64,000 nucleotides of DNA from NCBI GenBank assembly GCA_963796955.1, contig CAWCNJ010000006.1, positions 64,001-128,000 on the forward strand. Reading direction: 5' to 3'. The DNA comes from Endomicrobiales bacterium. GTDB lineage: Bacteria; Elusimicrobiota; Endomicrobiia; Endomicrobiales; JALOBY01. The translations under genes and the position numbers were made by a program. A model generated the notes under the pieces. It made no database searches. It was not told the DNA's origin and saw only the letters and a program-made list of their open reading frames with translations. Shown piece after piece: positions 9,821 through 28,957 of this stretch; position 1 is the first letter of the stretch, and every line of letters starts with the position of its first letter.

Positions 9821-10159
9821 CTATTCTGAAGTCCCGTTCGTGTTCCCTGATGAACCGGAATCGTTCAATGCGTCCTTGGCAAAGTAAATTAGGCTTTTTT
9901 TTAAAACGTCCCGCTCTTCGCGCAAGCGTTTGTTCTCTCGGCGAAGATCTTCTAGCTCTGTGTTGGGGGTGTTGTGGCCAACACCGGGAAATGCTTCAGT
10001 GGTTTTTTTATCAACCTCGGTTCGCCACTTGTAAAGATGATGTACGGGCAACTCAAGCTCGCGGGCTACTTCGGCAACACTTTTGCCGCTTACCTGCGTC
10101 CGGCGAACTGCTTCAAGCTTGAACTCCCGATTGTAACGCATCCGGTCTCTCTTTTGCAT
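9821..10159 (-). CDS. IS3 OrfA (HTH transposase subunit)
   Basis: YNREFKLEAV, SVAEVAREL, LRRENKRLREERDVLKK; RBS GGAGG. Confidence 0.92.
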   Translation of the reverse strand: MQKRDRMRYNREFKLEAVRRTQVSGKSVAEVARELELPVHHLYKWRTEVDKKTTEAFPGVGHNTPNTELEDLRRENKRLREERDVLKKSLIYFAKDALNDSGSSGNTNGTSE

Positions 10160-13586: not shown

Positions 13587-14666
13587 ATGCTAAAAAATAT
13601 TATTATCATCTTTACCATATGTGCGGCATTTACAGGGGGCATACAGGCTATGGAAAATAAAACAGATACGGCAACTTTCGCCGGCGGGTGTTTTTGGTGC
13701 ATGGTGCATCCGTTCGACACGTATGCCGGCGTCAGCAAGGTCGTTTCGGGTTATGCCGGCGGTACGGGCAAGAGCCCTACCTATGAGGATTACGCTGAAA
13801 AAGGGTATGTAGAGGCCGTACAGATAACCTTCGACCCTTCCGTCATATCGTATGAACGGTTGCTGGATATATTCTGGAAGCAGATAGATCCGACGGACGC
13901 CGGCGGTGAGTTCGTCGACCGCGGGCCGCAGTACCGCTCTGCCATATTTTATCATGACAACGAACAAAAACAGACGGCACTGAAAACGAAACAGGAACTG
14001 GCCTCCTCGGGCAAATTCACAAAACCGATCGTTACGGAAATACTGCCGTTCACTAATTTTTACCCCGCCGAGGATTATCACCAGGATTATTACAAAAAAA
14101 ATCCGGTGAAATATAAATATTACCGCCATAACGCCGGCAGGGACCAGTTCCTGAACAAGGTCTGGAAGGATCAGCGCAACACGCCTGAGCTGACGGGCTC
14201 CACCGCCACCGTTAGTTCCGCAATATCAAAAGATGAACTTAAAAGCAGGCTGAGCCCGATACAATATGAGGTTACGCAGCTGAAGGGCACCGAAAAGCCC
14301 TTTAAGAACGAATACTGGGACAATGAACGCGACGGCATTTATGTGGATATCGTTTCGGGCGAGCCGCTGTTCAGCTCTCTCGATAAATTTGATTCGGCTA
14401 CCGGGTGGCCCAGCTTTACGCGCCCGCTGGAACCGGATAATATCGTTGAGAAACCTGACAACACCCTGTTCGTTACCAGAACAGAGGTGCGCAGCAAGCA
14501 CGGGGACTCCCATCTGGGCCACGTTTTTAAGGACGGCCCGAAACCGACGGGACTGCGTTATTGCATGAACTCAGCGGCCCTCCGGTTCATCTCAAAAGAA
14601 AATCTCGAAAAAGAAGGCTACGGGCAATACACGAAGCTGTTCGAGAACCAGCTGCAGCATAGATAA
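13587..14666 (+). CDS. msrAB: Exported bifunctional methionine sulfoxide reductase MsrA/MsrB
   Basis: [18 protein letters not shown] (MsrA); [20 protein letters not shown] (MsrB); N-terminal signal peptide. Confidence 0.95.
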
Positions 14667-14696
14667 TGATTCCCTGTTCGGGGTGAGGTTGGGCGT

Positions 14697-15383
14697 TTGA
14701 AAATATCGATAATAATACCGGTGTACCATGAAGCCGCTCGGATCAACGCGCTGCTGGAAGAGTTGCGCTCGGGCGGGGCCGGTAAACCTTTTGAAATTAT
14801 CGTCGTGGATGGAAGCCCGTCTAAAGATACGCTGCGGGTTATAACAGATCCGGACGTGAAACAAAGGGTTTCCGCCAAGGGGCGCGCCGCGCAGATGAAT
14901 GCCGGCGCATCTATGGCCGGCGGCGACATCCTCCTGTTCCTGCATGCCGACACGCGTTTGCCTCAAGACGCTTTGCAGGATATTACCGCTCAAGTGCGTC
15001 TGGGCTTTGATGCCGGCGCCTTCGAATTAAAACTGGATTCCGCTCATCCCTTCCTTCGTTTTGTGTCGTTTACCGCCTCTTTCAGGTCCAAACTCCTCAA
15101 GATGCCCTTCGGCGATCAGGCGCTGTTCGTTAAGACCGGTATGTTCCGGTCGATAGGCGGCTTTACGGATATGGCGTTGATGGAAGATTTTGACCTGATG
15201 AAAAGGCTGAAGAAAAAGGGCTGCCGTATAGGTATCATAGATAAACCGGTGATCTCATCGGCGAGGAAGTGGGAGAGCGGCGGCATATACCGCAACACCG
15301 TTCGAAATCATTTGATGCGGCTGCTCTATCGTTTCGGAGCGGCCCCGGCCGTGCTTGAAAAATTCTATTATGGCGAACAATGA
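14697..15383 (+). CDS. GT2 glycosyltransferase, TIGR04283-like (radical SAM/arsenosugar-associated)
   Basis: ISIIIPV, GRAAQMNAGA, LLFLHADT, PFGDQALF, LMED, SARKW. Confidence 0.88.
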   Translation: MKISIIIPVYHEAARINALLEELRSGGAGKPFEIIVVDGSPSKDTLRVITDPDVKQRVSAKGRAAQMNAGASMAGGDILLFLHADTRLPQDALQDITAQVRLGFDAGAFELKLDSAHPFLRFVSFTASFRSKLLKMPFGDQALFVKTGMFRSIGGFTDMALMEDFDLMKRLKKKGCRIGIIDKPVISSARKWESGGIYRNTVRNHLMRLLYRFGAAPAVLEKFYYGEQ

Positions 15384-16917
15384 ATGTGTGGCGGTCTTTC
15401 TTAAATACCCCCAAAGGGGAAAAGTTAAGACGAGGCTCGCAAAAGGAATAGGCAGCACCAGTGCGACCTCTCTTTACGCTGCCATGGTGGAAAAGATAGT
15501 CCATGAGGCGAAAAACTCGGGGCGTGTTGTTGCCGTATTCTGTTCGCCGGCGAATGCGTTGCCTGCGATACGACAATGGCTGGGCACAGGCTGTCTGTAT
15601 TTCACTCAAAAAGGGCGCGGCCTTGGCGCCCGCATGAGGAACGCGTTTACCGAGCTCTTTGAAGCCGGGTACGAAAATGTCGTGCTGAGCGGCAGCGATA
15701 TACCGGCGTTGGATAAAACTATTTTTGTGAAAGCCTTTAAGGCGTTACAGGGCACCGGCGCGGCGCTTGGACCGAGCGTTGACGGCGGTTATTATCTGAT
15801 CGGATCAGCTAAAAGGTCGTTTAACGGTGATATCTTTAAGGGTATACCCTGGAGCGGTCCTGACGTGTTTTTCCAAACGGTCGCCGCCGCGCGGAAGAAT
15901 AATATAATCTTTACGCTGCTGCCCCGGCTGCGCGATATAGACGATGCCGACGGGCTGGAGGCCGGTATGATCGAGAGTTTTCAACAGCGTCTGAAAAAGG
16001 CCGGCCATTTTCCGCTTAAAGCGGATTCCGTCGGTGTGCTGCAGCTGAACGTCGGCAGGAAATGCAACCTATCCTGCGCTCATTGCCACGTAGAGGCGGG
16101 CCCGCACAGAACGGAAGTTATGGGCAGGGAAACCTTTGCCGACTGCCTGAATGTGATAAAGAACGCGCCGGGTATCCACACCGTTGATATAACGGGCGGA
16201 GCCCCGGAGCTGAACCCGTCCCTGGAATGGTTCCTGGGTGAAGTTTCAAAGCTTTCCCGGCGGCTTATCGTCCGCACGAATCTGGCCATACTGACAGAAA
16301 AGCCGTACAAAAAATTTATCGGTATCTATGCAGCCAACAAGATCGAGGTTTGCGGTTCGCTTCCCTGCTATCTTTCAGAAAATGCAGACAGTCAGCGGGG
16401 CAAGGGGAATTTCGCCAAATGCGTTGAGGCGCTGCAGGCGTTGAACACCCTCGGTTACGGCAAAGAAGGTTCCGGTCTTATACTGGATCTGGTACACAAC
16501 CCTGTGGAGGCTGCCCTGCCAGGCCCGCAAAAAGATTTGGAAGAGGCCTACAAAAAACATTTGAAGGCCGGTTACAACATAGAGTTCAATACCCTGTTCT
16601 GCCTGACCAATATTCCTGTTGGACGGTATCGTAAGACGCTTAGAGAGGAAGGACGGCTTGAAACGTATATGCAGGCATTGGCGAACGCCTACAACCCTGC
16701 CACGATACAGAGCGTTATGTGCAGGAACACGGTTTCCGTGGGCTGGGACGGCCGGCTCTATGACTGTGATTTTAACCAGATGCTGGAAATGCCGGCGGGA
16801 ACTTCCATAAAAGATTTTGACGGTACCAGGCTGAAGGATCGTACCATTCAGACCGGCAGCCACTGCTACGGTTGTACCGCAGGAAGCGGTTCTTCCTGCC
16901 AGGGGACGGTTATTTGA
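15370..16917 (+). CDS. arsS: Fusion of DUF2064/TIGR04282-like glycosyltransferase and ArsS-like radical SAM protein
   Basis: N-half KYP..GKVKTRLA, LGARM, GSDIP, LGPSVDGGYYLIG, DIDD; C-half CNLSCAHC, DITGGAPE, YDCDFNQ, HCYGCTAGSGSSCQG. Confidence 0.85.
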   Translation: MANNECVAVFLKYPQRGKVKTRLAKGIGSTSATSLYAAMVEKIVHEAKNSGRVVAVFCSPANALPAIRQWLGTGCLYFTQKGRGLGARMRNAFTELFEAGYENVVLSGSDIPALDKTIFVKAFKALQGTGAALGPSVDGGYYLIGSAKRSFNGDIFKGIPWSGPDVFFQTVAAARKNNIIFTLLPRLRDIDDADGLEAGMIESFQQRLKKAGHFPLKADSVGVLQLNVGRKCNLSCAHCHVEAGPHRTEVMGRETFADCLNVIKNAPGIHTVDITGGAPELNPSLEWFLGEVSKLSRRLIVRTNLAILTEKPYKKFIGIYAANKIEVCGSLPCYLSENADSQRGKGNFAKCVEALQALNTLGYGKEGSGLILDLVHNPVEAALPGPQKDLEEAYKKHLKAGYNIEFNTLFCLTNIPVGRYRKTLREEGRLETYMQALANAYNPATIQSVMCRNTVSVGWDGRLYDCDFNQMLEMPAGTSIKDFDGTRLKDRTIQTGSHCYGCTAGSGSSCQGTVI

Positions 16918-17567
16918 AAAAGCTGACGAAAGTAGTTTTATTCATTGTAGTGATCGCCGTTCTTGCCCTGGCCGCCCATCAGCTGGGACTCGGCGAGCGC
17001 CTTGCCCAGTTACGGGAATGGATCATCTCGCTTGGGTATTGGGGTCCGCTGGTTTTTATGATTGTTTACGCGTTTGCGGTAACTCTGCTGGTGCCGGCGT
17101 CGGCGTTGACCATTACCGCAGGGGCGATCTTCGGCTCGGGGTGGGGCGTCGTGGTGGTAAGTATTGCCTCGAGCGCCGGCGCGGCGCTGTCTTTTGTTAT
17201 AGCGCGTTATTTCGCGCGCGATCTGGTTGAGGCTTGGGCCCGCAGGAACCGGAGCTTTGCGAAACTGTACGAACTTACCGGCAGCAAGGGCGGTGTGATA
17301 GTGGCGCTGACCAGGCTGGTGCCTTTGTTCCCCTACACGCTGTTGAATTATGGTTTCGGTTTAACAAAAGTTGGCTTTAAGACATATTTATTCTGGTCGT
17401 GGTTGTGCATGCTGCCGGGCACGGTCCTCTATGTCGTCGGCGGCGATGTGGTCGTAAAAACCATCATGCGCGGCAAATTGCCCTGGGTCCTTATCGGTGT
17501 GCTGGCGGCCGTTATTGTCCTGCTTGGCGTGCTGGTGAGTTTCGCTCAAAGAAGGTTAAAAGAATGA
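16914..17567 (+). CDS. TVP38/TMEM64 (VTT/DedA-like) membrane protein
   Basis: LTITAGAIFG, RLVPLFPYTLLNY; TTG start overlaps upstream TGA. Confidence 0.88.
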   Translation: MKKLTKVVLFIVVIAVLALAAHQLGLGERLAQLREWIISLGYWGPLVFMIVYAFAVTLLVPASALTITAGAIFGSGWGVVVVSIASSAGAALSFVIARYFARDLVEAWARRNRSFAKLYELTGSKGGVIVALTRLVPLFPYTLLNYGFGLTKVGFKTYLFWSWLCMLPGTVLYVVGGDVVVKTIMRGKLPWVLIGVLAAVIVLLGVLVSFAQRRLKE

Positions 17568-18994
17568 AATACGAATATCATGCCATCATTATCGGCGGCG
17601 GCAGCGCGGGCCTTACCGTCGCCTCTGGTTGCGCGGCGCTGGGCGCCGGGGTTGCGCTCATAGAAAAAGGAAAAATGGGCGGCGACTGCCTTAACAACGG
17701 CTGTGTGCCCAGTAAGGCGTTCTTAAGGTCGGCGCATCTGCTTAACGAAATACGGTCCTCGGACCGTCTGAATATCACGGCGAAATATGAAGCGGTCGAT
17801 ATTAAGCGTATCATGGAACGGGTGCGCAACATCATTGGGGCTATCGCTCCGCATGATTCAAAAGAGCGTTTTGAAAAACTGGGCGTCAGCGTTATACGGG
17901 GGGAGGCTGTGCTGCTGGACAACCATCGCGTGAAAGCGAACGGCGTAACCCTGACCGGTAAGCATATCGTTATCGCCGCCGGCTCAAAGCCTGCGCTGCC
18001 GCCGATCCCCGGGTTAAAAGACGTGCCGTATTTTACCAACGAAAGCATTTTTAATATCGATGCGCTGCCGAAACATCTGCTGGTGCTCGGCGCGGGCCCC
18101 ATCGGCCTGGAGCTCGGCCAGGCCTTCAAGTATCTGGGGAGCGAGGTTTCCATAATAGATCTGCTTCCCTGTCTGTTGCCAAATGATGATGCGGAGGCCG
18201 GCCGCCTTTTGGGACAAAAGCTTGCCGGGGAAGGCGTCAATTTCCATCTCGGTTCAAAGATCATCGGGACAAAGCCGGTGCCCGGCGGCGTTGCCGTGAC
18301 CGTTGAAAAGAACGGCGTGCTGCAGGAGCTGGCGGGCGATATGCTGCTGGTAGCGCTCGGCCGTGCGCCGGCGGTAAAGGGCCTGGGACTTGAAAATGCC
18401 GGTGTGAAGCTCGATGAGCGCGGCTATATCGTCACGGATGACCGGTTCCTGACGAGCGCCGGGAATATTTATGCCTGCGGCGACTGCGCCGTGGTAGGCG
18501 GCCATGGCCCCTATCAATTCACGCATACCGCCGGTTATCAGGGAGCCATCGTGGCGCGCAACCTGATAGTACCTTTTAAGGGATCCATGGACCACGCCAT
18601 TGTTCCCTGGGTCACGTATACCACACCTGAGGTGGCCCATGTCGGCCTCACGGAACACGTCGCGGCGGACCGCGGTCTGTTCGGCCATTCTATCGTCGTA
18701 GATCTTGATAATGCCGACCGTTCTAAAACCGACGGCGAAGAAGGCGGTTTTCTGAAGCTGGTCGTAGGAAGCAACGGCCGTGTTGTCGGTGTTACTATCG
18801 TTGCTGAGAAAGCGGGAGAGATGATAGGGGCCGGCATACTGGCTGTAAAAAATAAACTCAAACCTTCGGTGTTCGCCTCCCTGATGTTCCCCTATCCGAC
18901 CCAGTCGGAACTCTACAAGACGGCCGCCTACCTTTCGTTGAAGGATTCTTTCAAGCCCTGGATGAAAAACCTGGTTAAAAAATTCTTGATCTGA
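17564..18994 (+). CDS. FAD-dependent pyridine nucleotide-disulfide oxidoreductase (MerA/LPD-like)
   Basis: IGGGSAG, GGDCLNNGCVPSK, GAGPIGLE, PYPTQSE; ATG overlaps upstream TGA. Confidence 0.9.
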   Translation: MKYEYHAIIIGGGSAGLTVASGCAALGAGVALIEKGKMGGDCLNNGCVPSKAFLRSAHLLNEIRSSDRLNITAKYEAVDIKRIMERVRNIIGAIAPHDSKERFEKLGVSVIRGEAVLLDNHRVKANGVTLTGKHIVIAAGSKPALPPIPGLKDVPYFTNESIFNIDALPKHLLVLGAGPIGLELGQAFKYLGSEVSIIDLLPCLLPNDDAEAGRLLGQKLAGEGVNFHLGSKIIGTKPVPGGVAVTVEKNGVLQELAGDMLLVALGRAPAVKGLGLENAGVKLDERGYIVTDDRFLTSAGNIYACGDCAVVGGHGPYQFTHTAGYQGAIVARNLIVPFKGSMDHAIVPWVTYTTPEVAHVGLTEHVAADRGLFGHSIVVDLDNADRSKTDGEEGGFLKLVVGSNGRVVGVTIVAEKAGEMIGAGILAVKNKLKPSVFASLMFPYPTQSELYKTAAYLSLKDSFKPWMKNLVKKFLI

Positions 18995-20166: not shown

Positions 20167-20682
20167 ATGCTGAAATTATTTTATAAAATATTAAAAACGC
20201 CGCAGCAGGTGATAGATGTTCCAGGCGGATGCAGCCAGGCCGATATCATGGCCGTCGGCGAAAAGATACAGTATAACGTTAAGCGCCTGTTCCGGGGCTC
20301 TCTGGCTATCCGGCATATTGACGCCGGCTCCGACAATGCCTGCGAACAGGAACTTACCGCGCTCTCCAACAGTTTCTACGATATCGAACGTTTCGGTATT
20401 AATTTTGTCGCTTCCCCCAGACACGCCGATATGCTTTTGGTCTCCGGTCCCGTTACACGCAACATGGCGGAGGCCCTCAAAAAGTCGTATGAGGCGATGC
20501 CTGCGCCGAAGCTGGTCATCGCCGTGGGTGACGATGCTATAGACGGGGGAATATATACAGGCAACTACGCCGTATTGGATGGTGTTGCTTCCGTGCTGCC
20601 CGTGAATTATGTTATCCCGGGAGATCCGCCTTCCCCAAAAACGATCCTGTGCTATTTACTCAACATATTGGAAAAGGTATGA
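20167..20682 (+). CDS. hyfI: Ehr/Hyf small subunit (NuoB/HyfI-like) with Cys-to-Asp substitutions
   Basis: YDIERFG, ASPRHAD, GPVTRNM; motifs read GSDNACE, VGDDA, PGDPP. Confidence 0.88.
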   Translation: MLKLFYKILKTPQQVIDVPGGCSQADIMAVGEKIQYNVKRLFRGSLAIRHIDAGSDNACEQELTALSNSFYDIERFGINFVASPRHADMLLVSGPVTRNMAEALKKSYEAMPAPKLVIAVGDDAIDGGIYTGNYAVLDGVASVLPVNYVIPGDPPSPKTILCYLLNILEKV

Positions 20683-22724
20683 GCGTTATTCTTTCTCAAA
20701 CCGGTTTTTTTGCGTTGTTCGCCTTGTTCGCCGTCGCCGGCGCCGGTTCCCTGCTGCTGGGCAAATATGACGAGCTGGCAAATAAATGGAACAGTATATT
20801 CTCAGCGCTCGGCTCGTTGTATGGTGTGGTTTTCGCTCTGTGCGCGATATTGTCTGGGCACACACTGGCTTTTTCATACAGCTCCGATCTCTTCCCGCTT
20901 CTCTTTCTTTCTTTCCGTATAGACATGCTTTCGGCCTATTTTATCTTTATCATTTCATCGATCGCCCTCTGGTGTTCGCTGTACGGTCTGGGCTACCTGC
21001 GGCATTACTACAAGAAATATAACCTCGGTGTGCTGGGTTTCTTTTATAATCTGCTGGTCGGCAGCCTCATGCTGGTCGTAACCGCGTCGAACGGCATATT
21101 CTTTTTGCTGGCCTGGGAACTTATGGCTATCGCGTCATATTTTCTTATCGTGTACGAACGTGATGAACCGGCGAATATCAAGGCCGGCTTCCTGTATTTT
21201 GTCATGACTTACGGGGCGACCGCCTTCATTATCGCCGCATTCCTGTTGTGCTACAAATACACCGGGTCGTTTGATTTTACTGCCATACACAACGGGATCG
21301 GCACCATGCCCGCGGCGGTTAAGGATCTGGTTTTCTTTCTGGCGGTGATCGGTTTCGGTACCAAGGCCGGCATCATTCCTTTTCACATCTGGCTTCCCGC
21401 GGCACACTCGGCGGCTCCTTCAAATGTCTCCGCCTTCCTTTCCGGTGTCATGATAAAAACAGGCATATACATGATGATCAGGATGTTTTTAGAGCTGCTG
21501 CAGCCGGCGCCCCTCTGGTGGGGCCAGGTGATCCTGGTTATCGGCTCAGTATCGGCGCTGCTGGGCGTTCTGTACGCTCTGACCGAACACGATATCAAAA
21601 GGCTGCTCGCGTATCACAGCATAGAAAATATCGGTATCATCCTGCTGGGTCTTGGCAGCGCGATGGTTTTTTCCTCTCTGGGGATGGCGCCTCTGGCGCT
21701 GCTCAGCCTTACCGCCGCCCTATTTCATACGCTCAACCACGCCACGTTCAAGTCGCTGCTTTTCCTGAGCGCCGGCTCGGTCATCAACCAGATGCACACC
21801 CGCAACATGGAAGAATACGGCGGCCTTATCAAGTACATGCCGCAGACGGCTTTTTTCTTTCTGATCGGTTCCATGGCGATATCGGCGCTGCCGCCCTTTA
21901 ACGGTTTTTTCAGCGAATGGCTTACCTACCAATCCCTTTTCCAGGGGATAAGTACGCTGGACCCGTCCACCAAGTGGATCTTTATTTTCGCGGCCGGCGC
22001 CCTTGCTTTTACGGGCGGTCTTGCCATCGCCTGTTTCGTAAAAGTCTTCGGTGTAACTTTTCTTGCACGCCCCAGAAGCCCGCGCGTGGCCGAAGCCGGG
22101 GAATCTTCTCCGGCGCTTCTTATCAGCATGGGGGCGCTTGCGTTGCTGTCCTTGTTGTTCGGGGTTTTTTCAGGGCCGTTGTCCGCCCTGCTGCAAACAG
22201 TATCGCATAGTATGGGCATGTACAAGACACAACCGCCGACCGTGGTTTCCTCGGGGTTGAGCCTTACCACGAACAACGGTTTTTCTTCTGTTTCCGGCCC
22301 GGCGTTTTTCCTTTTCTTCGCCGCGGTGCTCATAGCTGCGGCCTTTGTGGTACGGCGTTTTGTTTATAAAACCCAGAACGTCCGGGAAGGCGAGACCTGG
22401 AACTGCGGCACCCCGCTGACCCCCCGCATGGAGATAACGGCCGCGGGATTCAGCCGTTCCATCATCATGATCTACCGAGGCGTTCTAAAACCCAGCATAC
22501 AGCACGAGATAGAATACCACGACTCCGAAAGCCGCTACCTGCCGAAATCCCGGACGGTCATTATCGGCGTAAAAGATGTGCACAATTCGTATATCTACCG
22601 GCCGCTGAACCGGGTCTTTAACGCGTTGTCCCAGCGGGCCAAGAAAATTCAGACCGGTAATATCAATGTCTACATTTTGTATATATTCATAACGCTGGTC
22701 ATAGCGTTGTACTGGGTGCTCTAG
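20679..22724 (+). CDS. hyfB: Antiporter-like membrane subunit HyfB/EhrA
   Basis: AWELM, KAGIIPFHIWLPAAH, KRLLAYHSIENIG, LPPFNGFFSEW. Confidence 0.92.
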   Translation: MSVILSQTGFFALFALFAVAGAGSLLLGKYDELANKWNSIFSALGSLYGVVFALCAILSGHTLAFSYSSDLFPLLFLSFRIDMLSAYFIFIISSIALWCSLYGLGYLRHYYKKYNLGVLGFFYNLLVGSLMLVVTASNGIFFLLAWELMAIASYFLIVYERDEPANIKAGFLYFVMTYGATAFIIAAFLLCYKYTGSFDFTAIHNGIGTMPAAVKDLVFFLAVIGFGTKAGIIPFHIWLPAAHSAAPSNVSAFLSGVMIKTGIYMMIRMFLELLQPAPLWWGQVILVIGSVSALLGVLYALTEHDIKRLLAYHSIENIGIILLGLGSAMVFSSLGMAPLALLSLTAALFHTLNHATFKSLLFLSAGSVINQMHTRNMEEYGGLIKYMPQTAFFFLIGSMAISALPPFNGFFSEWLTYQSLFQGISTLDPSTKWIFIFAAGALAFTGGLAIACFVKVFGVTFLARPRSPRVAEAGESSPALLISMGALALLSLLFGVFSGPLSALLQTVSHSMGMYKTQPPTVVSSGLSLTTNNGFSSVSGPAFFLFFAAVLIAAAFVVRRFVYKTQNVREGETWNCGTPLTPRMEITAAGFSRSIIMIYRGVLKPSIQHEIEYHDSESRYLPKSRTVIIGVKDVHNSYIYRPLNRVFNALSQRAKKIQTGNINVYILYIFITLVIALYWVL

Positions 22725-22725
22725 C

Positions 22726-23652
22726 ATGAGATCTTTATGCTGGCTGCTTCAACTATTATTCATACCGCTGCTCTCGCCGCTCTGTATCGGCGTGATAAAA
22801 AAAGTGAAGGCCCGGCTACAGAACCGCAGGGGCGCGGGTGTTCTGCAGCCGTATAAAGATCTCTGGAAGCTTTTCCATAAGGACGAAGTTATCAGCCGGG
22901 ACGCCTCCTGGATCTTCCGCTGGGCGCCTTACATTGTTTTTACCGTGACCATCGTTGTGGGCGCCAGTATTCCGCTGTTCGCTTCTTTTGTGAGAAATGC
23001 CTATACCGGCGACATTTTGCTGATCGTATACACCCTGGCTCTGGGCGCCTTCTTTCTGGCGCTGGGAGGCCTTGACGCCGGCAGCACCTTCGGCGGCTTC
23101 AGCGCAAGCCGCGAAATGACGATCACGGCGCTGGCGGAGGGCGGCTTTATATTCTCTCTGCTGACCCTTGCGATCATAACCGGCACCACTAATGTTTTCG
23201 CGATAGCCGATAAAGGCGCCTTGCTGCAGGGCCAGTCGTTCTTAGCGGCGCTGCTGGCGTTCAGCGGATTTTTTATCATATTGCTCGCCGAGAGCGCGCG
23301 CTTTCCCTTTGACAACCCGGCCACGCACCTGGAGCTTACCATGATCCATGAGGCCATGCTGCTGGAATATTCCGGCAAACGCCTGGCGCTGATGGAATGG
23401 GCGGCGGCCAACAAACTATTGATCTTTATCGCGCTCGGCGCGAACCTGTTTTTTCATTCCGCGCTTGCGCAAAGCGCCGCACTGCTGCCGGTAGTCTTAA
23501 GCCTGCTGTTGTTCGGCGCAAAGGCTGCGGTCTTCTGTCTCATGATAGCGTTCCTGGAATCAGGCATGGCAAAATATCGTTTTTTCAGGCTGCCGGACCT
23601 GTTAATGGTGGCATTCATACTGAACGCGATAGCCATAGGATTGGGTAAATAA
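22726..23652 (+). CDS. hyfC: HyfC/NuoH-like membrane subunit
   Basis: ARLQNRRG, QPYKDLWKLF, PFDNPATHLELTMIHEAM.LEYSG. Confidence 0.92.
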   Translation: MRSLCWLLQLLFIPLLSPLCIGVIKKVKARLQNRRGAGVLQPYKDLWKLFHKDEVISRDASWIFRWAPYIVFTVTIVVGASIPLFASFVRNAYTGDILLIVYTLALGAFFLALGGLDAGSTFGGFSASREMTITALAEGGFIFSLLTLAIITGTTNVFAIADKGALLQGQSFLAALLAFSGFFIILLAESARFPFDNPATHLELTMIHEAMLLEYSGKRLALMEWAAANKLLIFIALGANLFFHSALAQSAALLPVVLSLLLFGAKAAVFCLMIAFLESGMAKYRFFRLPDLLMVAFILNAIAIGLGK

Positions 23653-23653
23653 T

Positions 23654-24301
23654 ATGTCAATGTTATCACTGGAAATGTTATCGGGGATCGTTTTCCTGAG
23701 TATCGTATTCCTGCATATCACAAAAAAGAATTACGAGGCCGTGCTCGCCTACAACATCCAGTCCCTGGCGGTCGTAATTATCCTTTTCAACTCGTACTTT
23801 GAGACGGGTAATATATTCCTGCTGCTGATAGCCCTGTTGGTGCTCAGCCTTAAAGTTATACTGGCCCATATTTTCTTCGTGAGATTGATAAACAAATATG
23901 AGCTTACATTTTCCGTGACAACGTATCTGGAAACACCCGTAGCCCTGATATTTATCGCCGTTGTGACCGGTATTGCGCATTCCACCAAATTCATGCCGCT
24001 GACCAGGATGATACCCGCCAATCAGGTGCCGCTCTCCCTGGCTCTTTCAGCGATCTTTACCGCTCTTTTACTGATAGTTAACCGCAAGGGCGCACTCTCG
24101 CAGATCATCAGCATACTCTCTCTGGAAAACAGCATTGTGGTGTTCTCCATGTTCGCCGGTCTTGAGCAATCGCCGGTTTTTCAAGTCGGCATGATATTCA
24201 ATATTTTCGTATGGCTTATGATAACGACGGTTTTTATCTCCATGATCTATAAACATTACGGCACGCTTGATATAACATCCATGAAGCACCTGAGGGAATA
24301 A
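23654..24301 (+). CDS. hyfE: HyfE-like membrane subunit
   Basis: Multi-TM, RKGALSQIISILSLEN; position in operon. Confidence 0.82.
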   Translation: MSMLSLEMLSGIVFLSIVFLHITKKNYEAVLAYNIQSLAVVIILFNSYFETGNIFLLLIALLVLSLKVILAHIFFVRLINKYELTFSVTTYLETPVALIFIAVVTGIAHSTKFMPLTRMIPANQVPLSLALSAIFTALLLIVNRKGALSQIISILSLENSIVVFSMFAGLEQSPVFQVGMIFNIFVWLMITTVFISMIYKHYGTLDITSMKHLRE

Positions 24302-24305
24302 AGGT

Positions 24306-25748
24306 ATGTTACTCAGTATAATTTTCCTGTCATTTTTAACCGCCGCGGCTGCCGGTCTTATGGCCAAAAGCAGGTCGCGCCTGGAATACGGTTCGCTTGC
24401 CGCTATAATTATTTCACTGGCCGCTTCATTCGCAATAGCGTTCAGGGTCGCATCCGCAGGCCACTATTCGCCGTTCTCTCTCTTCCATGTGGATGCCTTC
24501 GGCGCCGTATTGCTGCTGGTAATTTCCGTCGTAGGGTGCTCAACGGTTGTCTATTCCATACCGTACCTGCGTAAAGAAACTGAAAAAGAGATCATCGGTT
24601 TCAGCCGGGTAAAACAGTATTACGTGTTATTGAATTTATTTTTTATCGCCTTGTATCTGGCGGTTTCGGCCAGCAGCCCCATAGTTGCTTTTATAGCGAT
24701 AGAGGCGACAACGCTTTCAACGGCGCTGCTGGTAAGTTTCTATAACAAGCCGTCCACCGTCGAGGCTGCCTGGAAGTATGTGATAATCAATTCCGTAGGA
24801 TTGTTGCTGGGATTCTTCGGCACCCTGCTGTATTTCTCTCCTTTCAGGCTTGCGGCGATGAACGGCGCCATCAGCTGGCAATTCCTTGCTGAAAACGCGA
24901 CGCGCATGGATCCGCTGACCGCCAAGATCGCCTTCGTCTTTGTGATCATCGGCTACGGCACCAAGGCCGGTTTCGCCCCCATGCACACCTGGAAGCCCGA
25001 TGCCTATAGCAAGGCGCCCTCCGCCCTTGGCGCCATGCTTTCCGGCGCGGTGCTTCCGGTTTCCTTTCTGCTGCTGCTGAAATTCAAACGGATAACGGAT
25101 ATCGCTATCGGCATAACGTTCAGCCAGCATTTAATGATCGCGTTCGGGCTGCTGTCCATAATCGTTGCCGCGGTGATCATGTTCAGCTCAAATAATTATA
25201 AACGGCTTCTGGCCTATTCCAGCATAGAGAACGCAGGCGTCATGGCGCTCGGTTTTTCGTTCGGCGGCCTGGGAGTCTTTGCGGCCATCCTGCATTTGAT
25301 ATACCATTCACTGGTAAAAGTGGTAACGTTCTTCGCTGCCGGGAACTTGCTGCTGAAATACAGCTCGTCTAAAATTAATAACGTTAAGGGCGCCTTGAAA
25401 GTATTGCCGGTAACCAGCGTGCTGTTTATCGCGGGATTTTTGGTGGTTACGGGTCTTCCGCCGTTCGGCATATTCCTTACGAAAATGCTGATCCTCAGCG
25501 CGGGCATTAAGATCTACCCCGTTGCGGCTATAACCGCTCTCATTTTCATGACGCTTGTTTTTATCGGGTTCCTTAAACACGTTTCGGCCATGTTCTTCGG
25601 CGCGCCGCCCGCCGGTATAGAGGCCGGCGAAGGTTCGGTCTGGCTGGTAGTGCCTTCCTGCGTGTGCCTGGCTTTGATTCTGTTGTTAAGTTTTTATATG
25701 CCGCCGTTCCTGTATAAACTAATACGCGAGAGCGCCTTAAGGTATTGA
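24306..25748 (+). CDS. hyfF: HyfF-like antiporter subunit
   Basis: IEATTL, EAAWKY, GYGTKAGFAPMHTWKPDAYS, KRLLAYSSIE. Confidence 0.92.
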   Translation: MLLSIIFLSFLTAAAAGLMAKSRSRLEYGSLAAIIISLAASFAIAFRVASAGHYSPFSLFHVDAFGAVLLLVISVVGCSTVVYSIPYLRKETEKEIIGFSRVKQYYVLLNLFFIALYLAVSASSPIVAFIAIEATTLSTALLVSFYNKPSTVEAAWKYVIINSVGLLLGFFGTLLYFSPFRLAAMNGAISWQFLAENATRMDPLTAKIAFVFVIIGYGTKAGFAPMHTWKPDAYSKAPSALGAMLSGAVLPVSFLLLLKFKRITDIAIGITFSQHLMIAFGLLSIIVAAVIMFSSNNYKRLLAYSSIENAGVMALGFSFGGLGVFAAILHLIYHSLVKVVTFFAAGNLLLKYSSSKINNVKGALKVLPVTSVLFIAGFLVVTGLPPFGIFLTKMLILSAGIKIYPVAAITALIFMTLVFIGFLKHVSAMFFGAPPAGIEAGEGSVWLVVPSCVCLALILLLSFYMPPFLYKLIRESALRY

Positions 25749-27271
25749 TCATGACAACTATGAAACCGGAACAAATTATCGAAGTACCGGCCGCTGATAT
25801 TCAAAACGTTATCAGCCGCATCCGCGATGAAAAGCAACTGCGCCTGAAACTGCTTACCGCTACCGACGAACGGTCGCAGCAGGGCCATTTTAAGATCTGG
25901 TACATTTTCTTAAACCCGGAAAGCCGGAGCTGGCAGATATTTTATATAACGCCCACCGGGACGGAATTCCCTTCGGTCGCACATATCCTCCATGAGGCCT
26001 GGGACTACGAAAGGAAGATACAAACATTTTTCGGTCTTACACCGGCCGGCCACCCGGACGCACGGCCTCTCCTGCTGCATGAGAATTGGCCTGAGGATCT
26101 CTTCCCGCTCAGAAAAGATTTCCCGTGGCAGACACGGCCGCCGGCAGCCAATGGCACTTATCATTTCCAGAAAGTTAAGGGCGAAGGGATTTATGAAGTT
26201 TCCGTGGGTCCGGTACACGCCGGCATAATAGAGCCGGGTTATTTTAAGATCAGCGTTGCGGGCGAAATGATGGTGCTGCTGGAGCCGCGGCTTGGCTACA
26301 CCCATAAAGGCAGCGAAAAACTATTTGAGACGCTGCCGCTTGCCAAAAAGATAAAGCTGTCGGAAAAAATATCAGGCGACAGCTCGTTCAGCCATTCGCT
26401 GGCTTTTTGCCAGGCGCTGGAGCAGCTTGCCTCCATAACCGTTCCCCGGCGTATGCGCTATCTCAGGGTAATTTACGGTGAGTTGGAGCGGTTGGCAAAC
26501 CACCTGGGCGATATCGGCGCCCTGACGCTTGATTGCGGCTATAATTTCGGCGGTGCGCAAAACGGCCGGCTGCGCGAGGTGCTGATGCAAATGAATGAAC
26601 GCCTTACCGGCAGCCGTTTTCTGCGGGGCGTGAATGTTGTCGGCGGTGTTACCAGGGATATTTCCGCTCAAGACGGTGAGAGGTTAGGTAAGGAGCTGGC
26701 AGGTATCGCGGTAGATTTTACCGAAATAATCGAAGTCATGAAAAATAGCTCGTCTCTTCTGAACCGGTTAAAGGGAGCGGGCGCGCTTCCGCACCGGCTT
26801 GCTTTCGACCGCGGTGTCCTTGGCGTAGCCGCCAAAGCGCTTGGCCTGGAGTACGACACGCGCCTTGATATGCCCTACGCCGCCTATGATGAACTGGCGC
26901 CGGAAAGGATAGAACCCGAACTGAGCGGCGATGCCTACGCCAGATTCAGTGTGCGCGTTAAAGAAGTTTATACCTCAATAAAACTTATCCAGGAGGCCCT
27001 GCGCACCCTGCCTGCAATGGACGGGCCGCTGCCGCAAAATATCGTTTTCGAAAAAAATTCCTTCGCGCTCGGCTGCGTTGAAGGCTGGCGCGGGGAAATA
27101 CTCTATTTTGTTGCCACGGACTCTCAGGGTACTATCTGCCGCGTCGCCCCGCGGGATCCGTCTTTCATCAACTGGCCGCTGCTGAAAAATTCGGCCTTCG
27201 ATAACATTATCCCCGATTTCCCGCTGATAAATAAAAGCTACAATCTGTCGTATTCCGGGAACGATCTGTAG
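25745..27271 (+). CDS. hyfG: Ehr large subunit (HyfG/NuoCD-like) lacking NiFe-binding CxxC motifs
   Basis: GPVHAGIIEPG, ELERLANH, VEGWRGE, DPSF.NW; EKISGDSS in place of RxCGxC and NLSYSGNDL in place of DPCxxC. Confidence 0.9.
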   Translation: MIMTTMKPEQIIEVPAADIQNVISRIRDEKQLRLKLLTATDERSQQGHFKIWYIFLNPESRSWQIFYITPTGTEFPSVAHILHEAWDYERKIQTFFGLTPAGHPDARPLLLHENWPEDLFPLRKDFPWQTRPPAANGTYHFQKVKGEGIYEVSVGPVHAGIIEPGYFKISVAGEMMVLLEPRLGYTHKGSEKLFETLPLAKKIKLSEKISGDSSFSHSLAFCQALEQLASITVPRRMRYLRVIYGELERLANHLGDIGALTLDCGYNFGGAQNGRLREVLMQMNERLTGSRFLRGVNVVGGVTRDISAQDGERLGKELAGIAVDFTEIIEVMKNSSSLLNRLKGAGALPHRLAFDRGVLGVAAKALGLEYDTRLDMPYAAYDELAPERIEPELSGDAYARFSVRVKEVYTSIKLIQEALRTLPAMDGPLPQNIVFEKNSFALGCVEGWRGEILYFVATDSQGTICRVAPRDPSFINWPLLKNSAFDNIIPDFPLINKSYNLSYSGNDL

Positions 27272-27295: not shown

Positions 27296-28957
27296 GTGTT
27301 GCGACCGAAATTGTTCGATGTGTTCAAGTCGTACGACAGTAAAAAGTTCACGAAAGACGCGGTAGCCGGGGTGGTGGTGGGCATCGTCGCCCTGCCGCTG
27401 GCCATCGCGTTCGCCATCGCCTCCGGCGTAACGCCTGATAAAGGGCTTTACACCGCGATCGTAGCCGGTTTTCTTATCTCGGCGCTGGGCGGCAGCCGCG
27501 TGCAGATAGGCGGCCCGACGGGGGCCTTCGTGGTTATCGTCTATGGTATTATCCAGCAGCACGGCATCGACGGCTTGCTTGTGGCGACGATCATGGCCGG
27601 TATCATACTGATGATCATGGGTTTTGCCAAACTTGGCGGTGTCATAAAATTCATTCCCTACGCGGTAACGGTGGGCTTCACCCTGGGCATAGCTTTTTTA
27701 ATTTTTACCGGGCAGATAAGCGATATGCTGGGTCTCGGCCTGAGAGGCCTGCCTGCGGATTTTTTTGATAAGATGGGGATCGTTATGCGGCATGTGCCGC
27801 AATTCAGCATTTCAGCCGTTTGCATAGCCCTGGCGACTATGGCAACGATCGCCCTGTGCGGCAAAATATCCAGGCGCATACCCGGCTCGCTTATCGCTAT
27901 CATCGGCACCTCCGCCGCCGCCTATTTCCTGAAGCTGCCGGTTGAGACGATCGGTTCGCGTTTCGGCGCCATACCGCATACCCTGCCAATGCCCGTGGTC
28001 CCGCACATAAATTTCAATATGGTACGAAGCCTGATCAACCCCGCTATCACTATCGCCATGCTCGGCGCCATTGAATCGCTGCTCTCCGCGGTAGTAGCCG
28101 ACGGCATGATAGGCGGACGGCACCGTTCAAACATGGAGCTTATAGGTCAGGGCGTAGCGAACATCGTCTCGCCCCTGTTCGGCGGCCTGCCGGCGACCGG
28201 CGCTATCGCCCGTACCGCCACGAACGTTAAAAACGGCGGTCGCACACCCATAGCCGGTATCATTCACGCCATCACGTTGTTGCTGCTCATGCTGTTCTTC
28301 GGCGGCATGGCTGGGCGCATACCGCTCGCCTGCCTGGCAGGTATTCTTATGGTAGTGGCCTATCACATGTCAGAGTGGCGTTCAGCGGTCTCCATCGTAA
28401 AAACCGCCCGCACCAGCGCTTTGGTACTCATTGTCACCTTCATACTGACGGTGGCAGTAGACCTTACGGTTGCTATAGAGGTTGGCCTGTTGCTTGCGAT
28501 CGTGATATTCATCCGCAGCATGAGCATGCACACGAATATCGCCATGATCACGCCCGAAGAAGAGGATCCCGTGGCGGAAACGGATTTTGACACCACCCAG
28601 ATACTGCAAACCGTGCTGCCAAAAGGCGCCGTGCTGTATGAAGTTAACGGTCCTCTGTTCTTCGGCGCCGTCTACAAATTCCGCGAGGCGCTTGAAGGCA
28701 TAGAAAAACCGCCCAAAGTGCTGATAGTGCAAATGGAACAGGCGCCCATGATAGACGCTACCGGTACCCATCTTTTGGAAGAGACATTTCGCTCCATGAG
28801 CGCGCATGGCACCGTTTTCGTTGTCTGCTGTATGCGTCCCGCCGTACTGAACATGTTCAAACGCGCCGGCCTCTTCGACTATCTGCACGATGAGAACATC
28901 TGCGAAACCCTTGCCTGTGCCATAGCCCGCGCCCGCGCTATTTGCCTTTCTAAATAG
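27296..28957 (+). CDS. SulP-family anion transporter with STAS domain
   Basis: GIVALPLAIAFA, GGPTGAF, PATGAIARTA, GPLFFG, IDATG. Confidence 0.93.
   Translation: MLRPKLFDVFKSYDSKKFTKDAVAGVVVGIVALPLAIAFAIASGVTPDKGLYTAIVAGFLISALGGSRVQIGGPTGAFVVIVYGIIQQHGIDGLLVATIMAGIILMIMGFAKLGGVIKFIPYAVTVGFTLGIAFLIFTGQISDMLGLGLRGLPADFFDKMGIVMRHVPQFSISAVCIALATMATIALCGKISRRIPGSLIAIIGTSAAAYFLKLPVETIGSRFGAIPHTLPMPVVPHINFNMVRSLINPAITIAMLGAIESLLSAVVADGMIGGRHRSNMELIGQGVANIVSPLFGGLPATGAIARTATNVKNGGRTPIAGIIHAITLLLLMLFFGGMAGRIPLACLAGILMVVAYHMSEWRSAVSIVKTARTSALVLIVTFILTVAVDLTVAIEVGLLLAIVIFIRSMSMHTNIAMITPEEEDPVAETDFDTTQILQTVLPKGAVLYEVNGPLFFGAVYKFREALEGIEKPPKVLIVQMEQAPMIDATGTHLLEETFRSMSAHGTVFVVCCMRPAVLNMFKRAGLFDYLHDENICETLACAIARARAICLSK

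Follow-up and report, generated by a model that had tools for sequence, protein, structure and literature searches.

Carboxylates at the iron-sulfur ligand positions of an Ehr-type small subunit: a candidate redox-free ion translocator

The Ehr-type complex encoded in a 64,000-nucleotide stretch of DNA from an Endomicrobiales bacterium (hereafter, the window) has a small subunit, EhrS, that carries aspartate at three of the four positions at which cysteines would ligate an Fe-S cluster, and this departure from the four-cysteine (four-Cys) form recurs among its relatives. We propose that the ligand-less Ehr complex is a redox-free ion translocator in which carboxylates stand in for the cluster, a reading that we judge to have about an even chance of being right.

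The ligand positions of EhrS and the Ehr operon

The features of the window on which the analysis rests are as follows.

20167..20682, + strand: ehrS, HyfI/NuoB-like small subunit, 171 aa, ATG start (Pfam PF01058, PDB alignments, AlphaFold2, Foldseek)
20332..20334, + strand: Asp56 (GAC), ligand site 1 (structure-sequence alignments and homologue alignment)
20341..20343, + strand: Cys59 (TGC), the sole ligand Cys left, dispensable in relatives (homologue alignments)
20533..20535, + strand: Asp123 (GAT), ligand site 3 (structure-sequence alignments and homologue alignment)
20623..20625, + strand: Asp153 (GAT), ligand site 4 (structure-sequence alignments and homologue alignment)
20679..22724, + strand: ehrA, HyfB-like antiporter-type subunit (PF00361; NCBIfam hydrogenase 4 subunit B just below the cut-off; conservation)
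22726..23652, + strand: ehrB, HyfC/NuoH-like (PF00146)
23654..24301, + strand: ehrC, HyfE-like with a NuoK-type C-terminal part (domain and family matches)
24306..25748, + strand: ehrD, HyfF-like antiporter-type subunit (domain and family matches)
25745..27271, + strand: ehrL, HyfG-like NuoC+NuoD fusion, start TTG 25745 or ATG 25751 (PF00329 and PF00346)
27296..28957, + strand: SulP/DauA-type anion transporter gene (PF00916 and STAS)

The start codon of ehrS is backed by an aligned Met in 119 of its 120 closest homologues (the best 120 of 7960 scored protein matches). The protein holds the motifs GSDNACE (D56, C59), VGDDA and PGDPP (D153); in VGDDA, D122 is the ordinary residue preceding the ligand and D123 occupies the ligand position. 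When EhrS is aligned with MbhJ (6cfw_J), HycG (7z0s_G) and PSST, D56, D123 and D153 fall on ligand cysteines and C59 falls on the second Cys of the CxxC. Motifs, codons and structure alignments therefore agree with the initial annotation that Asp occupies three of the four Fe-S ligand sites (D56, C59, D123, D153), and its statement that each Cys-to-Asp replacement takes more than one base change is confirmed, the minimum being two. Cys is absent from sites 1, 3 and 4 in all 120 closest homologues, and the replacements therefore reflect neither chance nor sequencing error. EhrS has no fused ferredoxin domain.

An AlphaFold2 model of EhrS built from a 142-row alignment has a mean pLDDT of 92, and Foldseek superimposes it on MbhJ with an rmsd of 2.0 A over 133 columns, indicating that the fold is intact. 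Helices of the model begin at sites 2 and 3 (residues 59-65 and 122-126). This model weakens the case for site 1 as a strict helix N-cap, since the helix starts at residue 59; a weaker reading, in which site 1 may form a putative Asx/Ser/Thr turn, is retained.

As the first gene of an intact, tightly coupled six-gene Ehr operon in which all six frames are open, ehrS has a stop codon that overlaps the start of ehrA (ATGA). Conserved residues are present throughout the membrane subunits: E147, K229, H243, K260, H350, H354 and a C-terminal WNCG motif in EhrA; E189, D196, H201, E203, H208 and E209 in EhrB; K67 and E158 in EhrC; and E133 and K220 in EhrD. EhrL lacks all four NiFe cysteines, RVCGIC reading KISGDS and DPCYSC reading NLSYSG in an alignment to HycE (7z0s_E). 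Since the Ehr operon also contains no NuoI/HyfH gene and no fused ferredoxin domain, the complex is without a recognisable redox cofactor site.

Ligand patterns, repeated loss and conservation among relatives

The residues at sites 1 to 4 of the 120 closest homologues read DCDD in 86, DCDN in 25, DADD and TCDD in 3 each, DVDD in 2 and DGDD in 1, so that site 3 is D in all 120 and the C59 equivalent is kept in 114. Among the best 80 of 389 genome loci, the patterns are TCDD (26), DCDD (22), DADD (5), SEDD and TEGD (4 each), DCDN and CCCC (3 each), TEDD and TADD (2 each) and nine singletons; in 23 of these 80 loci all four sites lack Cys. Counts from 84 dereplicated ligand-less EhrS sequences are D44 T26 S9 N3 E1 C1 at site 1, C47 E18 A8 T4 V4 P2 I1 at site 2, D64 G12 E4 A3 S1 at site 3, and D68 N11 S3 P1 A1 at site 4. 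These per-site counts indicate that relatives can do without the last Cys, which is replaced in 37 of 84, and that the set of ligands varies, site 1 being T, S or N in 38 of 84. Of the 84 sequences, 79 have two or three acidic residues at the ligand sites and the remaining 5 have one or none. At the level of sequence, the property that persists is net carboxylate content and not the Asp3Cys set.

The initial annotation had inferred a re-purposed Asp3Cys site holding an unusual cluster, and this part of it is not supported by the wider alignment, in which only 22 of the 80 best loci have the exact DCDD pattern and the Cys is so often replaced. Nor is a fixed Asp3Cys site supported, given the variation among D, T, S and N at site 1 and among D, N and S at site 4. 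Alternative Cys ligands, the finding that would have undercut the annotation's claim of ligand replacement, did not appear: no EhrS column besides site 2 reaches 30% Cys in 81 aligned ligand-less sequences. Ligands from EhrL or the membrane subunits were also considered and rejected. The only cysteines conserved there in the ligand-less set are C452 and C576 of EhrA, which are equally conserved in four-Cys Ehr, and C222 of EhrL, which is found in 46% of four-Cys Ehr.

If the Asp3Cys site nevertheless bound an unusual Fe-S or Fe centre, the complex could remain a redox-driven pump. Single Asp ligands to [4Fe-4S] clusters have precedent in P. furiosus ferredoxin and DPOR BchB, and both the intact fold of EhrS and the retention of C59 in 114 of the 120 nearest homologues accord with such a centre. 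Against it, close relatives at 23 of the 80 best loci lack Cys at all four sites, and the main-clade operon has no recurrent electron-input gene next to it. In complex I an Arg stabilises N2; this residue, whose placement on the HRG motif is inferred, is Lys in 65 of 66 ligand-less EhrL sequences, a weak point because Lys is also found in 25 of 52 four-Cys EhrL sequences. We consider a surviving Fe-S or Fe centre highly unlikely.

In a 199-row FastTree phylogeny with the four ligand columns masked, 66 ligand-less rows, including the query, form one clade (0.987), and the remaining ligand-less rows are scattered in many places among four-Cys rows. An IQ-TREE analysis of a 76-row subset, also with the ligand columns masked, places 10 changes of ligand state, at least 5 of them forced by starred branches, and recovers a single origin in 0% of bootstrap trees; an AU test on a 37-row subset under a simpler model rejects a single origin of the ligand-less form with a p of 8e-29. 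The TEGD group is separate from the main clade on both the 76-row tree and the concatenated tree. The EhrS trees are based on a short alignment of 125 columns, and many of their forks are open. The direction of change, taken as loss and not regain, depends on the four-Cys outgroups, and we conclude from these trees that ligand loss arose repeatedly and independently.

Families beyond the main clade extend this pattern. All 120 best matches to one protein (P0259), with source names from Bacteroidota, one of them Niastella vici, read DCDN. The best matches to another (P0222), with source names of Chloroflexi, Acidimicrobiales and Gaiellaceae, are ligand-less in 119 of 120 cases (DEDS 89, DDDS 7, DIDD 6, and others). 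In both families a fused N-terminal domain retains CP plus CxxCxxC cysteines, which we take to be one ferredoxin-type site, so these Bacteroidota and Actinobacteria families are not cofactor-free. Among 251 genomes of one phylum, 14 matched, 4 with DCDN and 10 with CCCC, all with the genes A, B, D, L and S. Within one family, DCDN operons are intermingled with CCCC operons, and one DCDN operon is sister to a CCCC operon (98/93). The archaeal loci L072 and L079 (DTDN, DPDN) form another ligand-less group.

It is also possible that a non-redox cation (Mg, Mn, Ca, Zn, Na or K) sits where the cluster used to be, bound by the carboxylates. Such a site would have a structural or sensory part in a redox-free ion translocator, a version of the initial annotation's non-redox metal ion in which the Cys is not needed. 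This possibility arises because two or three carboxylates are present in 79 of 84 sequences and because Asp was reached at sites 1 and 3 by three families independently, as in the DCDN (120/120) and DEDS (89/120) matches above. The invariance of D at site 3 in the 120 nearest homologues points the same way, as does the pairing of Gly at site 3 with a compensating Glu at site 2 in 11 of 12 ligand-less sequences. Judged by sequence, the convergence would fit a metal or proton site as well as a filler. Against a cation site, ligand identity shifts at every position (D/T/S/N; C/E/A/T/V/P; D/G/E/A; D/N/S), 5 of 84 sequences have at most one acidic residue, and the model places sites 2 and 3 at helix starts, which favour anions. 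We regard a bound cation, the main rival of our preferred reading, as doubtful, though quite conceivable.

For 11 pairs of relatives, hand-picked as close sisters on the tree, Nei-Gojobori dN/dS estimates span 0.04-0.24 in ehrS and 0.04-0.25 in the four further genes examined. Conservation is highest in the EhrS core, with a mean identity of 0.74 versus 0.46-0.58. When 81 ligand-less EhrS sequences (query included) are compared with 53 four-Cys sequences, the conserved positions lost are sites 1, 3 and 4 and T107 only; likewise, 66 ligand-less EhrL sequences have lost none of the residues conserved in 52 sequences of the four-Cys type. The charged membrane residues are kept in both types (E147, K229, K260, H350 and H354 in A; E189, E203 and E209 in B; K67 and E158 in C; E133 and K220 in D), and the pairs E147/K229 of A and E133/K220 of D, which we assign to TM5/TM7, are each found in 67 of 67 sequences.

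These data bear out, for the family, the initial annotation's view that the pattern reflects selection and not decay: operons are intact, dN/dS is low and EhrS is the most conserved subunit. A decaying operon in which the Asp residues are neutral leftovers would be suggested by the window copy itself, which departs from near-invariant columns at 27 positions versus a median of 8 and ranks joint second among 55 full operons counted outside the TEGD lineage; its departures in EhrL include H166Y, R168K and F169I. The window copy may therefore be under relaxed selection. Decay at the level of the family, however, is ruled out by the low dN/dS across five subunits in relatives, by the six open, tightly coupled frames and by a pattern common to hundreds of relatives, and for the operon we hold it to be very improbable.

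Host genome and genomic neighbours

On a FastTree phylogeny of concatenated A-B-D-L sequences (81 rows), the window operon groups with Patescibacteria sequences (local support 99), and it nests among four-Cys Ehr operons. This grouping makes lateral acquisition likely, and we conclude from the trees that the operon was probably acquired by transfer into a non-CPR host, the host genome being 2.1 Mb in size, 81% complete and not of CPR type. Five of 40 relatives have an Ehr-type EhrS, at 48-53% identity and all CCCC, and all 19 fetched non-self loci are CCCC. A compositional trace of recent transfer was not found, the operon GC3 being 0.59-0.69 versus a genome median of 0.605.

When 400 genomes were drawn evenly from the phylum to which a Magasanikbacteria genome belongs, Ehr-type EhrS was ligand-less in 9 and four-Cys in 1, and one further partial match read ??DD. 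The pattern is CCCC in 30 of 30 fetched loci from the phylum of a Rhizobium genome (34 places matched) and in 29 of 30 from the phylum of a Syntrophus genome (42 places matched), where the exception is the centre genome. Ligand-less forms are also present in named isolates, namely Cryobacterium sp. Y50 (L054) and a protein named Niastella vici (P0459).

We considered and rejected the possibility that the ligands were lost because the host cannot make clusters. By motif reading, the host carries Ech-type and Mbh-like hydrogenase operons with NiFe motifs, and their small subunits are four-Cys. SufBD was not found in the 81% complete genome, but a NifU/IscU scaffold gene was; together with the four-Cys Ech and Mbh-like small subunits, this gene indicates that the host is able to build clusters.

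Several other features of the host genome were observed, the two hydrogenase labels again by motif reading. The Mbh-like hydrogenase cluster includes Cys-rich input subunits (G000:C8:247977-261499), and the Ech-type operon adjoins a gene for a 792-aa membrane protein (G000:C11:28899-36737). About 10 kb upstream of the ehr operon lies an HTH_Tnp_1 transposase ORF (window 9821-10159, - strand), and window 13587-18994 encodes an MsrA-MsrB fusion, a GT2 glycosyltransferase, a DUF2064 + radical SAM + DUF3641 fusion, a VTT-domain protein and a pyridine nucleotide-disulphide oxidoreductase. The three-domain fusion looks unusual.

ATP synthase genes (atpB, E, F, H, A, G, D and C) recur next to the operon in the main ligand-less clade, which centres on Patescibacteria; they lie in the fetched flank of 17 of the 80 best loci and also of L136. 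With a flank of at least 5 kb, atp genes are near 15 of 59 ligand-less loci versus 0 of 40 cluster-type loci (Fisher p 2e-4, a value overstated because of kinship, flank length and genome size, the cluster-type loci having shorter flanks and larger genomes). The ehr operon follows atpC directly (by 7 nt in L012 and L027), precedes atpB (L033), converges on the atp genes (L004) or lies inside the atp operon between atpG and atpD (L035). Adjacency to atp genes changes state 11 times on the tree, and it is found in 1 of 8 evenly drawn Patescibacteria loci. Among Patescibacteria, atpG is present in 10 of 10 genomes with ligand-less Ehr versus 45 of 80 without it (p 0.005-0.008, overstated by kinship). 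In the window's host, the F-type ATP synthase operon is on another contig than the ehr operon. The typical Na+ signature is absent from 10 c subunits encoded adjacent to Ehr, which does not decide between Na+ and H+ specificity.

Besides the atp genes, no dedicated regulator or electron-input gene recurs beside the main-clade operon in 80 loci, nor does an HTH-type neighbour. A set of four-Cys Ehr loci (L208-L247) is often preceded by a protein of about 180 aa of HTH type (11 loci) or by a 236-aa protein with a helix-turn-helix-like start (11 loci), both labelled by sequence reading.

A few loci have unusual architectures. The DIDD-type operons of L249-L264 have the gene order B-C-D-L-S-A, and their EhrL differs at several otherwise invariant positions. 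In L042:1-20513, a complete TCDD operon is inserted between the L and S genes of a four-Cys Ehr operon. Two genomes each combine a pair of non-standard Ehr operons from separate lineages: DCDD with DCDN in one (G996; L048, L286) and DTDD with CCCS, about 18 kb apart, in the other (G042; L054, L147).

The SulP gene of the window begins 24 nt past ehrL on the same strand and is possibly co-transcribed with the ehr operon; a promoter scan yielded 11 sites versus 10.5 expected and nothing specific. This gene bears on a further alternative, in which the proton gradient drives non-redox chemistry or solute binding in a pocket of EhrL and the EhrB loop, the cluster being dispensable and never needed for the real job. 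The DAB and NDH-1MS complexes use a gradient in this way for CO2/bicarbonate. Consistent with such a pocket, a polar set in EhrL (H158, H166, H187, D212, H253, D256, N496, K497, S498, Y503 and D507) and H201 and H208 of EhrB are near-invariant in both ligand-less and four-Cys Ehr. SulP-type transporters adjoin Ehr in the window and in several other loci: genes 50-54% identical to the window SulP adjoin four-Cys Ehr operons in L244 and L289-L291, and more distant ones adjoin Ehr in L023 and L287. In addition, the passages on Ehr in PMC7894505 describe the Geobacter complex as more abundant on formate, its role never having been investigated. However, the SulP gene is not a conserved part of the main clade's operon (it adjoins in 1 of 80 best loci), H166 is Tyr in the window copy, and one actinobacterial-type family differs at several of these polar positions. 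We consider gradient-driven chemistry as the primary role of the complex unlikely.

Proposed function and comparison with known systems

Our preferred reading remains a redox-free ion translocator. Lacking a redox cofactor at both the NiFe and the N2-type site, the complex would be unable to pass electrons and, having no electron path, could only couple one gradient to another process. It would act as a secondary, gradient-coupled translocator that exchanges protons against another cation or a small solute, on the same ion circuit as the F-type ATP synthase; both the ion and the direction of transport are inferred. D, N, S and T, as observed at sites 1 and 4, are able to serve as acceptors for backbone N-H bonds in turns. 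Two or three carboxylates would fill the empty cluster pocket and take over its backbone N-H bonds and negative charge, thereby holding the EhrS-EhrL-EhrB interface in working shape, and their protonation may act as a gate. An essential metal would be unnecessary to such a translocator. The repeated dropping of the last cluster while other conserved residues are kept suggests that the core job has no need of electron transfer.

A bolder extension, which we offer tentatively and would not expect to hold, is that the whole Ehr family is a redox-independent machine on a complex I chassis. The N2-type cluster would then be a relic dropped many times. Each loss would leave behind a small group of carboxylates that substitute for the redox switch by becoming protonated or by binding a cation. 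The conserved His/Asp/Lys pocket of EhrL and EhrB would couple the proton gradient of the ATP synthase to work other than redox chemistry, such as exchanging cations or handling anions or CO2. If true, this would be a natural complex I whose coupling machinery runs without electrons.

Ehr complexes have been interpreted as pumps driven by redox chemistry or as connecting hydrogenases with complex I. Ligand-less Ehr could serve as a model for coupling and antiporting in the complex I membrane arm without redox input, and the question is made testable by natural near-pairs, such as DCDN beside CCCC operons in one family, and by named isolates. The link to ATP synthase bears on ion-gradient management in Patescibacteria, which lack a respiratory chain.

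In its Ehr sections, PMC6349859 (Matheus Carnevali 2019) takes the absence of Ni/Fe ligands as the defining trait of Ehr and anticipates redox-coupled charge translocation, which, according to PMC7894505, was never shown for Geobacter. A passage of PMC4758237 refers to Ehr as a proposed intermediate. As described in part of PMC8042128, complex I assembles without N2, and the R121K variant loses the cluster. In the searched literature we found no description of small-subunit ligand loss in Ehr; bioRxiv supplements and figure images lay outside this search, and a prior mention is possible.

By operon, large subunit and tree, the window complex is a member of the Ehr family in which the four-Cys feature of the small subunit is absent, a feature that is usually assumed for Ehr but is not a naming criterion. 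Like the Ehr of Geobacter sulfurreducens (GSU0739-45), it has the same six subunit types, a large subunit without NiFe ligands and the shared invariant residues of EhrL, EhrA, EhrB and EhrD. Unlike that complex, it has ehrS as the first gene and an EhrS with one dispensable Cys and no ferredoxin domain, whereas all 53 comparison EhrS sequences are four-Cys; the redox-coupled charge translocation assumed for Ehr would be impossible by the known route in the ligand-less form. The CPR-specific Ehr clade (Jaffe 2020) also lacks Cys in the large-subunit L1/L2 motifs, and the L1/L2-focused text and Fig. S6 legend of PMC7304191 mention neither small-subunit ligands nor ATP synthase linkage. The window operon groups with Patescibacteria, but its host, with a 2.1-Mb genome and its own Ech and Mbh-like hydrogenases, is not CPR-type.

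Group 4 [NiFe] hydrogenases (Hyc/Hyf FHL, Mbh, Ech) and complex I share the small-subunit fold and the charged axis of the membrane arm with the window complex. It differs from the former in an EhrL without RxCxxC and DPCxxC motifs and in having no HyfH gene, and from the latter (Nuo) in an EhrS without the NuoB tandem CC/N2 ligands (all NuoB models fall below the cut-off) and in having no NuoI. Asp-ligated Fe-S proteins of the Cys3Asp type have three Cys and one Asp, unlike EhrS, whose one Cys is replaced in 37 of 84 relatives.

Mrp Na+/H+ antiporters have an architecture that includes an MrpB/E/F/G Na+ module. A domain and family search of the six operon genes found no such module, so that classical Mrp-type Na+/H+ antiport would be without its known parts, and the operon encodes NuoH-, NuoCD- and NuoB-like subunits that are absent from Mrp. 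Like Mrp, the window complex has two MrpD/MrpA-like subunits, an MrpC/NuoK-like part, no redox cofactor and transmembrane Glu/Lys pairs, and by this analogy ligand-less Ehr most likely works as the Mrp antiporters do.
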